Below, piece by piece: positions 9,396 through 9,673 of a DNA stretch of 24,000 nt. Source of the DNA: an uncultured Alphaproteobacteria bacterium (GTDB lineage Bacteria; Pseudomonadota; Alphaproteobacteria; Rhizobiales; Beijerinckiaceae). The stretch lies in NCBI GenBank assembly GCA_963820095.1, contig CAWFZA010000014.1:1-24000 (forward strand), written 5' to 3'. Made by a program: the position numbers and the translations under genes. The notes below the pieces were generated by a model that was not told the origin of the DNA, made no database searches, and saw only the letters and a list, made by a program, of their open reading frames with translations. Positions within the stretch are counted from its first letter, which is position 1; every line of letters begins with the position of its first letter.

Positions 9396-9424
9396 TTGAC
9401 AAAAGCAGAAATGCGCGATATCCA
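9396..9424 (+). promoter_or_regulatory. sigma70-like promoter TTGACA-17 nt-TATCCA at the head of repeat unit A
   Basis: TTGACA lies at 9396-9401, followed by a 17-nt spacer and TATCCA at 9419-9424. No protein gene follows on this strand. Confidence 0.35.
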
Positions 9425-9673
9425 TTCCCTCGGTCGGAATCTCTTTCCCGCTTTGCCCGCAACGGGCGGGAAGACGGGAAGGCGTGCCTGTTTGGCATTT
9501 TGGTCCACAACCGGACACGCGAGTTGAGCGCGCGGGCGATTTTTTTTATTTTTTTCTCTGTAACTCATTGAAAAGGCCCGAATTCCACCAAAGAAAACGA
9601 AAGAAAACCAAGGAATTCCAAGCGTTTTTCCTTGTTTTTATTTGGATTGACTTGGCGCCAACTCGCGCGTTGG
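9396..9673 (+). repeat. ~280-bp unit, copy A: promoter-like hexamers, GC-rich ~135 nt, T8-A-T7 run, GTAACTCATTGA, AT-rich purine/TTGGA-type repeats, closing hairpin
   Basis: GTAACTCATTGAAAAGG (9560-9576) matches the reverse complement of 20549-20565 at 15/17 positions. Other parts: T-run at 9540-9555, GAATTCC...AAAGAAAAC x2...GGAATTC at 9580-9617, and hairpin CCAAC 9658-9662 / GTTGG 9669-9673. Part order and total length match copy B. Confidence 0.55.

Follow-up and report, generated by a model that had tools for sequence, protein, structure and literature searches.

An intergenic repeat family restricted to Roseiarcus, with a conserved promoter and a candidate IHF-type core

The repeats described here constitute an undescribed intergenic family that is restricted to Roseiarcus, a genus from soil and peat, and is present in about 100 copies per genome. 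The family comprises at least two subfamilies of mosaic elements of 270-300 bp, and its copies are old. The explanation that we favor, to which we give a probability of roughly 40% from the analysis of the sequences, is that the repeat may be a nucleoprotein boundary element with its own promoter, of the kind represented by BIME-1/RIB or Correia elements; IHF binding, DNA bending, promoter activity and boundary function are all predicted properties of this proposal.

The window, i.e., the whole stretch of 24,000 nucleotides that was analyzed, contains two of these repeats, copy A on the plus strand and copy B on the minus strand, which the first-pass annotation of the window had described as a two-copy unit. 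Profile searches refuted this number, because they identified 114 non-overlapping loci of the family in the 5.28-Mb MAG, which is 86% complete; the other option in that annotation, an unclassified repeat family, proved correct, with roughly 50 times as many copies as supposed. Ninety-seven of the loci are at least 150 bp long, and the motif counts given out of 97 refer to this set, made up of 55 copies of subfamily A (about 300 bp, represented by copy A) and 42 copies of subfamily B (about 267 bp, represented by copy B). The profile built from subfamily B recognized copy A with E = 8e-9, and the subfamily A profile recognized copy B with E = 2e-7; the resemblance between the two copies far exceeds chance. 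Paralogous copies are mostly 65-78% identical to each other.

When the search for copies was extended from this genome to 18 sampled congeners, the family was found to be multicopy, with many copies each, in 11 of them for subfamily B and in 8 for subfamily A. The complete genomes of three congeners (G005, G007 and G011) contained no copies, and the element is therefore not essential to the genus. The core of the repeat had no match in 250 genomes from 120 other genera of the order, and the core-bearing records with a named genus belong to Roseiarcus. A full-text literature search with the core motifs retrieved nothing relevant, the papers that name Roseiarcus being ecological surveys.

Direct reading of the sequence confirmed the positions that had been assigned to the parts of both repeats, namely the hexamers, the 17-nt spacer, the T8-A-T7 run, the box and the AT-rich tail of copy A, and the hexamers, the 17-nt spacer and the box of copy B on the minus strand. 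According to the profiles, copy A spans 9384-9689 and copy B 20717-20449, and the features of the two copies are the following:

9330-9356, plus strand: optional upstream module U, ending in ...CGCGATAAGAGCC, with a REP-like hairpin before it at 9258-9329
9396-9424, plus strand: promoter module of copy A, with -35 hexamer TTGACA (9396-9401), 17-nt spacer and -10 hexamer TATCCA (9419-9424)
9425-9505, plus strand: GC-rich variable body of copy A with local hairpins, the least conserved stretch of the family alignment
9506-9526, plus strand: 5' arm of a long-range inverted repeat (CACAACC...CGCGAGTTG), which pairs with 9659-9677
9540-9555, plus strand: T8-A-T7 run; such a T-run is present in 43/55 A copies and in 0/42 B copies
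9560-9576, plus strand: core box GTAACTCATTGAAAAGG, whose bottom strand reads TCAA-N4-TTA and resembles the IHF consensus
9577-9658, plus strand: AT-rich palindromic tail with CCAAGRAAA / TTTYCTTGG units and phased A/T tracts
9659-9689, plus strand: 3' arm (CAACTCGCG...GGTTGC) and end of the subfamily A profile, placed from the profile and the folds
20677-20717, minus strand: 5' end and promoter module of copy B, with -35 hexamer TTGCAG (20705-20700), 17-nt spacer and -10 hexamer TAAACT (20682-20677)
20566-20670, minus strand: predicted transcribed 5' segment and variable GC-rich body of copy B, with ATG (20670-20668) at the expected +1
20533-20565, minus strand: core of copy B, formed by the box GTAACTCATTGATAAGT (20565-20549) and a TCTCG..CGAGA segment
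20502-20532, minus strand: three head-to-tail GGAAATCC(A)AG units with a period of 10-11 nt, a motif found in 40/42 B copies
20449-20501, minus strand: tail of copy B and its 3' end motif TCAAGAAAATCCAAAC (20464-20449), found in 41/42 B copies

The two boxes, GTAACTCATTGATAAGT in copy B and GTAACTCATTGAAAAGG in copy A, are identical at 15 of 17 positions, as had been reported. The short hairpins that were thought to close both units need a different interpretation: in copy A, the hairpin fits better as the 3' arm of a long-range inverted repeat that joins 9506-9526 to 9659-9677, a pairing that appears in the MFE folds of copy A and of the consensus and whose 5' arm motif is present in 32/55 A copies, and in copy B, the hairpin (about 20446-20425) falls beyond the end of the conserved family region, near 20449. 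The motif of module U was found upstream of the promoter module in 38/97 copies, from both subfamilies, and the genome contains about 10 occurrences of the segment 9263-9356, e.g., one adjoining a B copy on contig C13. The GGAAATCC(A)AG stretch is the part most conserved across species, being 85-96% identical in many congener copies.

Within the 35 full-length B copies, the TTG of the -35 hexamer is kept in 34-35 and positions T1, A2 and T6 of the -10 hexamer in all 35, with a 17-nt spacer free of indels, and the central positions of the -10 hexamer (TAnnnT) vary. An A is invariant 7 nt past the -10 hexamer, at +7, and all 35 copies have an ATG there. The subfamily A promoter has the consensus CTTGACA...GCTATAC, and the pattern TTGNNN-N16-18-TANNNT is present in 31/55 A copies; copy A itself fails a strict promoter scan because position 6 of its -10 hexamer is A. 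In copy B, the scan also reads TTGATA-17-GAGAAT, within the core, as promoter-like (20557-20529). Because the promoter is convincingly conserved, transcription from it is likely, as judged from the alignment. An invariant promoter implies that transcription, or at least the binding of RNA polymerase, is selected, which suits an RNA product and a DNA site alike.

The box was found in 92/97 copies, and its bottom strand matches TCAA-N4-TTR in 89/97. Its alignment columns show a conserved TAA, four variable positions and a conserved TTGAAAA, which fits the IHF consensus; the bottom strand of the copy B core is TATCAATGAGTTA, a full match to WATCAANNNNTTR. In the whole genome there are 71 perfect WATCAANNNNTTR sites, and 22 of them fall within the elements, which account for 0.5% of the DNA. 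Moreover, ihfA and ihfB are both present, with scores above the NCBIfam cut-offs. From this sequence match, we regard the core box as a putative IHF-type site. An A/T-rich tract usually lies 5' of an IHF core and is not on the expected side here. Other readings of the box are a -35-like TTGAWA and an imitation of the IS66 terminal repeat (GTAACC...).

A/T tracts phased at about 11 bp are a signature of intrinsically bent DNA. In the elements, AA/TT dinucleotides recur about every 11 bp in three subfamilies with different repeat-unit sequences (z = 14 for A1 and z = 46 for A2), although the copies are related by descent and these scores, like the counts across copies, therefore overstate independence. 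A role of CcrM/GANTC sites as a conserved feature was considered and rejected, since the core sites (GATTC, GAATC) are intact in less than half of the copies (39/94 at +20 and 30/94 at +33); the overall enrichment of GANTC in the elements is only 2-3-fold.

The claim that both window copies point into the 3' ends of convergent genes was borne out, copy A facing a FUSC-family gene (9694-11751, minus strand), whose stop codon (9694-9696) is separated by 5 nt from the end of the element, and copy B facing an Aconitase_C/LeuD-like gene (19504-20205, plus strand). By gene calls made with a crude GC3-based ORF caller, 71/94 copies have their 3' end directed at the stop codon of a convergent gene (p = 7e-7), and 44/94 copies lie between convergent genes vs 18% expected; subfamily A copies end a median of about 30 nt from the stop codon. 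A second species shows a weaker bias, with 26/40 copies facing a convergent gene (p = 0.08) at a median gap of 29 nt. The orientation of the copies relative to local GC skew gave an odds ratio of 2.4 that was not significant (p = 0.06).

Seven orthologous copies located downstream of leuD in different species were compared with the adjacent gene. Compared pairwise, they were 0.86 identical in the core, 0.89 at the 3' end and 0.53 in the middle of the element, and the third codon positions of leuD were 0.76 identical. The GC-rich spacer, of about 110-130 bp, drifts almost neutrally. The family probably spread through one subclade of the genus as a mobile element of the non-autonomous type. We infer that the promoter and the core of its old copies have been maintained by purifying selection or by concerted evolution.

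Three modules, always in one order and orientation, make up each copy: a sigma70-type promoter, a GC-rich spacer and a strongly conserved AT-rich 'architectural' module. As the boundary element that we propose, the repeat would act chiefly as DNA, by serving as a nucleoprotein site. IHF would bind the box, and the box together with the phased tracts would create a sharp bend at the 3' end of the transcription unit. This bend may mark a boundary or insulator, as proposed here by analogy with BIME-1/RIB in E. coli or Correia in Neisseria. The promoter of the element would fire through the module toward the convergent gene, and the resulting RNA would be an unstructured by-product or an antisense transcript.

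A possible reading, and a live rival to the boundary element, is that the repeats form a multicopy family of small RNA genes, the promoter of each element producing an RNA of about 230-280 nt. The functional part would be the conserved and largely single-stranded core (the box and the CCAAGGAAAUCC repeats), and the RNA might serve as a protein-binding platform, as a seed, or as a cis antisense to the 3' end of the convergent gene. The promoter hexamers and the +1 position that are invariant in B copies, and kept in orthologous copies as well, would be expected from such genes, and so would the orientation of 71/94 copies toward the 3' end of a convergent gene and the conservation of the core above that of synonymous sites. 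The structural data give this reading a mixed answer. For subfamily B, RNAalifold returned a consensus energy of 0 on both strands, i.e., no conserved structure. For subfamily A, it found only a sequence-conserved stem, whose CAACC/GGTTG pairs are kept in 94-100% of the copies without covariation, and one AT-rich hairpin; the pairs of this hairpin covary between subfamilies and include some G-U pairs on the element strand, which favors an RNA, but the covariation is confined to it.

The search for an intrinsic terminator also speaks against a small RNA. A terminator scan of 9250-9800 found none, the energies of hairpins followed by a U-run in the B tail were about equal to those of shuffled sequences, and the T-run does not qualify as a terminator, being preceded by a terminator-type hairpin in 2/42 subfamily A copies vs 3.2 expected from shuffles; the transcript of about 120 nt that was proposed to end at this run is thus not supported. 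Rfam searches of the whole window at the gathering threshold, and of both loci with E values up to 10, matched no family and gave chance hits only. A further argument against the small RNA is the 11-bp period of the A/T tracts, which persists where the unit sequences differ and is a property of DNA rather than of RNA. No CsrA gene that could read the GGA repeats was found in this 86% complete genome, and a CsrA sponge was rejected on these grounds. As to the "candidate ncRNA" of the first-pass annotation, the outcome is mixed: its promoter is conserved, but there is no Rfam match, no consensus fold in subfamily B and no support for a terminated transcript of about 120 nt. That annotation had held that AT-rich DNA conserved without compensatory changes would favor a DNA-level site, and the core comes close to this pattern. 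Nothing shows the repeat to be a structured RNA gene.

We consider it unlikely that the repeat is a purely selfish, non-autonomous MITE-like element, in which a transposase, with IHF as a cofactor, would recognize the conserved unit at the promoter end, the box and the repeated CCAAGRAAA units as cis signals, any effect on the host would be incidental, and convergent intergenic regions would be safe havens. In favor of a MITE, the distribution of the family among congeners is patchy, from 0 to many copies, and a given site may be occupied in one species and vacant in another: at leuD the element is present in 7/19, with a partial remnant in an eighth, and the FUSC site is empty in 5 relatives. 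In these comparisons synteny breaks at the element and the exact ends are not defined. The small size (267-300 bp) and the non-coding nature of the elements would also suit a MITE. Regarding the ends, the -35 region of the consensus is an inverted copy of the tail unit, although as an imperfect 8/10 subterminal match in subfamily B (ATTTCTTGC vs the reverse complement of CCAAGAAAAC), and the 6 + 8-bp inverted-repeat arms of subfamily A bound an inner unit and not the whole element; no convincing full-length terminal inverted repeats were found. The longest words shared by left and right flanks (35 + 35 copies) were distributed like those of mismatched-flank controls, and a target-site duplication above the control is thus lacking. 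Old copies could have lost short target-site duplications.

The search for an autonomous partner with the same ends found no clusters of repeat units outside the elements and no inverted box pairs flanking a gene (genome 86% complete). A point for the MITE is that the box starts with GTAACC, as does the terminal repeat of an IS66-family IS that targets it and that is inserted 3 nt upstream of the box in at least 5 copies, always in one orientation; this element-borne IS has ends that differ from those of the repeat and its own 8-bp duplication. Against the MITE, old copies all retain TTG/TAnnnT and the core, also as orthologues across species, a conservation unlike that of decaying MITEs unless gene conversion homogenizes the copies.

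It is improbable that the repeats are domesticated 'end-caps' of transcription units whose promoter would fire head-on at the convergent gene so that the polymerases would meet at an IHF-bent, curved roadblock. If this were true, a high-GC bacterium poor in intrinsic terminators would own about 100 portable collision or roadblock terminators, or topological insulators.

A small leaderless protein gene in subfamily B is very improbable. The ATG at the predicted +1, which is invariant and lies exactly 7 nt past the -10 hexamer, would start an ORF of about 38 codons whose stop lies within the box (...VTH*), and this frame is continuous from that ATG as far as the box TGA in copy B of the window and in the consensus. 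Nevertheless, it is kept in 9/29 copies, the three frames being used about equally, the variability shows no codon-position periodicity (0.91, 1.00, 1.04), and subfamily A has no such ORF; the 38-codon ORF is thus largely refuted, its frame being neither conserved nor periodic, and no reading frame is kept in the repeat family (267-300 bp). The original model of a two-copy locus that makes an RNA of about 120 nt ending at the T8-A-T7 run is barely tenable, since the promoter-like site and the long T-run of copy A on which it was based are set against 114 loci, the lack of a T-run in subfamily B (0/42) and the lack of a hairpin ahead of the run.

The family matters first for annotation, because each Roseiarcus genome has about 100 such loci that correspond to no gene and to no known RNA; the elements yield spurious ORFs, e.g., 20468-20722 on the minus strand, end contigs (C34, C19 and C27) and attract insertions of the IS66 and IS110 families. 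It is, in addition, a repeat with polarity and a promoter of its own, and both this promoter and the IHF-like core, predicted to be bent, are nearly invariant in old paralogues and in orthologues across species. These roughly 100 natural replicates could help to establish if dispersed repeats function as boundaries where alphaproteobacterial genes end, a question that likewise concerns REP/BIME, Correia and CIR elements. The reach of the finding is that of a single genus of mostly uncultured soil and peat bacteria, and the mechanism is a proposal.

Several known systems resemble the Roseiarcus repeat. RIMEs and the 'cuckoo' small RNAs are, like it, intergenic, mosaic or multicopy features of the Rhizobiales; RIMEs are built of large palindromes, and cuckoo RNAs are structured, with fewer than 10 copies. 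The Roseiarcus repeat matched neither in sequence nor through Rfam. REP palindromic units (20-40 nt, GC-rich) are absent from the conserved body, and REP-like hairpins occur only as optional flanking modules.

The Caulobacter CIR is likewise an alphaproteobacterial intergenic repeat without classical MITE ends, and GANTC sites are also found in the Roseiarcus core. CIRs, of about 110 bp, are described as sharing a conserved GANTC that defines them and as being conserved across alphaproteobacterial species (PMC2229807), a description that sets them apart from the Roseiarcus repeat, in which GANTC is often broken and whose core had no match in the 250 genomes from other genera. Promoter sequences and IHF binding are documented for Correia elements (PMC2649163, PMC2229807), and the Roseiarcus family is similar to those of Neisseria (CREE/NEMIS) in consisting of abundant small intergenic repeats with a promoter and an IHF-type core that affect or abut neighboring genes. 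Correia elements have terminal inverted repeats of 24-26 bp, a TA duplication, a length of about 105-155 bp and RNase III hairpins, whereas neither terminal inverted repeats nor a target-site duplication was found for the Roseiarcus family, and its subfamily B has no conserved hairpin.

BIME-1 and RIB are mosaic intergenic repeats of about 100 copies with an IHF linker between inverted repeats (PMC3333891, PMC1525189); BIME-1 carries an IHF site, RIBs are located at the 3' ends of transcription units, and REPs are targets of IS elements (PMC3333891). The Roseiarcus family differs from them in sharing no sequence similarity, in being three times longer and confined to one alphaproteobacterial genus, and in its strict polarity, conserved promoter, T-run and phased A/T tracts. 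It is like E. coli BIME-1/RIB (RIP) in its mosaic structure, its approximately 100 copies, the IHF consensus in a conserved central linker, which in subfamily A is flanked by inverted repeats as in BIME-1, its 3'-end location and its use as an IS target. The family is a fresh instance of a kind of bacterial repeat that is already known.

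Direct reading of the sequence located every part that the first-pass annotation had listed in copy A and copy B of the repeat, at the positions listed here with the neighbouring genes.

Parts of copies A and B, read from the sequence, and neighbouring genes
8446-9246, IS110-family transposase gene upstream of copy A (basis Pfam)
9396-9401, plus strand, copy A -35 hexamer TTGACA, 17-nt spacer to the -10
9419-9424, plus strand, copy A -10 hexamer TATCCA
9540-9555, plus strand, copy A T8-A-T7 run
9560-9576, plus strand, copy A box (conserved 17-mer) GTAACTCATTGAAAAGG
9694-11751, minus strand, FUSC-family gene, neighbour of copy A
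19504-20205, plus strand, Aconitase_C/LeuD-type gene, neighbour of copy B
20532-20502, minus strand, three head-to-tail GGAAATCC units of copy B
20565-20549, minus strand, copy B box
20682-20677, minus strand, copy B -10 hexamer TAAACT
20705-20700, minus strand, copy B -35 hexamer TTGCAG, 17-nt spacer to the -10

The box of copy A is followed by an AT-rich tail built of CCAAGG/CCTTGG-type units, and in a pairwise alignment the similarity between the two copies is confined to the promoter module plus the region of box and tail. Between leuD and copy B, positions 20216-20440 hold a different repeat, containing ...GGGCGTCGAAAGACGGGCGTC... and ...CATTGCGAGCGAAGCGAGGCAATC..., with about 16 partial matches elsewhere in the genome; an insert of this kind also lies downstream of leuD in two other species (loci L166 and L178). 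At 21371-21500 there is a 128-bp inverted-repeat element (arms of 25 nt, 96% complementary), single-copy in the genome, with an arm containing GATCCAAATCAAGGA, a sequence similar to the A/B family's repeat unit.

Our solid conclusion is that the A and B elements constitute a new family of intergenic repeats, confined to one genus, whose members are polar and mosaic. When the 5.28-Mb genome of origin (41 contigs, 64% G+C) was searched, copy A gave 38 matches in a first search, sensitive BLASTN gave 69 for A and 50 for B, and two nhmmer rounds gave 116 and 82 hits that merged into 114 non-overlapping loci, which refutes the description of a two-copy unit and bears out the option of an unclassified repeat family. 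Ninety-seven loci are 150 bp or longer. Type A, of about 300 bp, accounts for 55 of them and has 36 full-length copies; type B, of about 267 bp, accounts for 42 and has 37 full-length copies. Cross-hits between the two profiles are confined to the core. Most copies are 65-78% identical to the query, which indicates an old family rather than a recent burst. A third small group has the same box flanked by GACTCGCTAATC direct repeats and consists of the box plus GCTCGATTCGGAC without an A or B body (C26:47019, C29:54431 and C39:126469). Some copies are near-identical even in their flanks (C25:32033-32307 with C23:205659-205926; C39:56541-56835, C37:174228-174518 and C9:33341-33633), suggesting segmental duplications or strain-level redundancy in the MAG, whose contamination is estimated at 6.6%.

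Of 18 species sampled from the genus, Roseiarcus, 11 carry multiple copies of family B and 8 carry multiple copies of family A; some near-complete congeners have no copies. A 24-mer taken from the core has exact matches in at least 117 stretches of publicly available genomes, where the genus, if named, is always Roseiarcus and the other records are 'uncultured Alphaproteobacteria' MAGs; the core plus tail had no match in 250 genomes representing 120 further genera of the order, among them four that belong to the same family as Roseiarcus. A full-text literature search returned neither the core motifs nor any account of Roseiarcus repeats.

The order of the modules is fixed in the A and B consensus, and the element is polar. 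An optional upstream module, made up of a REP-like hairpin and ...CGCNATAAGAGCC, occurs in 38 of the 97 copies, in both subfamilies. In a set of 35 full-length B copies, 34-35 keep the TTG of the -35 and all 35 keep T1, A2 and T6 of the -10, whose three middle positions vary; the spacer is 17 nt without exception, and 7 nt after the -10 there is an invariant A, the first base of an invariant ATG. This pattern matches the one that textbooks give for an active sigma70 promoter and its +1. The family A promoter, CTTGACA-N18-TAnnn, is less regular than that of B (TTGNNN-N16-18-TANNNT in 31/55 copies). The GC-rich body of about 110-130 bp is poorly conserved and unlike between A and B, and the long T-run is limited to family A (43/55 copies), GAAAATTCTTTT taking its place in B. 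The box, G(T/C)AACCCNTTGA(A/T)AAG followed by CGATTCGG, is found in 92/97 copies. The B tail runs from three direct GGAAATCCAAG units through a variable stretch to the end motif CCAAGAAAAYCCAAAC, and the A tail has forward and then reverse units, forming an AT-rich palindrome; a long-range inverted repeat, CACAACC...CGCGAGTT with AACTCGCG...GGTTG, encloses this palindrome along with the T-run and the box. On the 3' flank of many B copies, a GC-rich hairpin module of the GACGGAGCC-N6-8-CTCCGTC type, often between the element's end and the convergent stop codon (e.g. L169, downstream of leuD), adds a further optional part to the mosaic.

The invariance of the promoter keeps a multicopy sRNA or antisense family in contention, a reading that we consider somewhat unlikely. 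For the candidate ncRNA proposed earlier, no Rfam family reached its gathering score, and relaxing the search to E values up to 10 brought up chance hits only. RNAalifold found no consensus structure on either strand of 35 B copies, and in 35 A copies retained only the CAACC/GGTTG stem, conserved in sequence with zero covariation, and the AT-rich hairpin, which does covary (e.g. UA, CG and AU at one pair). A small TCTCG/CGAGA hairpin 3' of the box is broken without compensation in several aligned copies. The T-run, formerly thought able to end a transcript, is not a terminator: it is preceded by a suitable hairpin in only 2/42 family A copies vs 3.2 expected from shuffles, a terminator scan of 9250-9800 found none, and the B-tail hairpin plus U-run is no more stable than shuffled sequence. 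The invariant ATG lies exactly at the predicted +1 in the window (20668-20670, minus strand) and in all B copies, followed by about 35 conserved nt with no conserved frame; a leaderless mini-ORF and an initial-transcribed-sequence motif are candidate explanations for it. As a coding candidate, the reading frame from this ATG to the TGA of the box, present in the window copy, was rejected, being in frame in only 9/29 copies; B variability shows no codon periodicity along it.

The leuD-downstream copy occupies the same place and orientation in 7/19 congeners, with a partial remnant in an eighth. Mean pairwise identity among these seven orthologues is 0.86 in the core, 0.89 in the 3' end motif, 0.75 in the promoter, 0.53 in the middle and 0.35-0.41 in the flanks, with 0.76 at leuD third codon positions; the core is therefore maintained by selection or concerted evolution, and the middle is drifting. 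Copy A, on the FUSC side, is missing in five relatives, and no clean empty site could be aligned, synteny being broken at the elements. A purely selfish MITE-like element would fit the patchy distribution, but is unlikely given the conservation in old and orthologous copies and the lack of convincing full-length terminal repeats and of duplications (no target-site duplication above control, and no autonomous partner visible in the genome).

At the DNA level, the bottom strand of the box reads (T/A)(T/A)TCAA-NNNN-TTAC, with a perfect WATCAANNNNTTR in half of the B copies and TCAA-N4-TTR in 89/97 copies; the elements, 0.5% of the DNA, hold 22 of the 71 perfect sites genome-wide. The column counts (TAA conserved, four variable, TTGA(A/T)AA conserved) follow the IHF consensus, some columns being fixed by construction because membership was partly pattern-defined, and nhmmer-based alignments agree in pattern. 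The genome encodes IHF alpha and beta, both above NCBIfam cut-offs. GANTC (CcrM) was rejected as the conserved feature, its core sites being intact in fewer than half of the copies. Tail units differ among A1 (CCAAGGAAA), A2 (GTTTA-N6) and B (GGAAATCCAAG), yet AA/TT recurs with a period of about 11 bp in all three (z = 14, 46 and 12 vs shuffles); a helical period retained while the sequence changes points to DNA curvature and not to an RNA property.

With gene calls from a crude GC3-based ORF caller, the gene at the 3' end of the element lies on the opposite strand in 71/94 copies (binomial p = 7e-7), 44/94 copies lie between convergent genes vs 18% of intergenic regions, and the copies in tandem regions comprise 27 in antisense and 8 in sense orientation. 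Family A elements typically end 5-50 nt from the stop codon (copy A, 5 nt). In a second species of the genus (40 copies) the trend is weaker (26/40, p = 0.08), and short gaps recur (median 29 nt for A, 67 nt for B). Orientation showed no significant dependence on local GC skew (p = 0.06).

At least five element copies, drawn from both subfamilies, carry a 1.74-kb IS66-family IS (Pfam PF03050; terminal repeats GTAACCGGGGCAAATT, 8-bp duplication GAAAATCG) at a point 3 nt upstream of their GTAACCC box, in a single orientation (C12:154984-156722, C34:43-1780, C34:41157-42899, C34:42902-44635 and C35:7236-8970; loci L188-L191), including one tandem pair and one A/B chimera. This is site- and orientation-specific targeting. 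A sixth, partial IS copy adjoins an element at roughly the same position in the profile, and the transposase frame is split in several IS copies; the box may act as a pseudo-end for the transposase. The IS110-family element of the window sits at the optional upstream module of copy A (IS110 to module, 8014-9356), and the genome holds about 10 occurrences of its right flank (9263-9356), composed of a REP-like hairpin and the ...ATAAGAGCC module, often immediately 5' of A or B elements, so the repeat complex is a nest for two IS families.

As to mechanism, we tentatively favour, with a probability of about 0.4, an element that would act on the DNA level as a nucleoprotein site, in the manner of BIME-1/RIB or Correia repeats: where transcription units end, IHF would bind the box beside a stretch of intrinsic DNA curvature, and transcription from the element's own promoter would run through the element in the direction of the convergent gene. 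BIME-1 linkers contain an IHF site, RIBs are located at the 3' ends of transcription units, and REPs serve both as topological insulators and as targets of ISs (PMC3333891); Correia elements contain promoters and are bound by IHF (PMC2649163, PMC2229807). The A/B element has no convincing full-length terminal repeats, no duplication above control and no visible partner, features that define MITEs, and it lacks the REP units that define BIMEs and the conserved GANTC that defines CIRs. It is therefore a new family within the general kind of dispersed intergenic repeats, standing outside all three.
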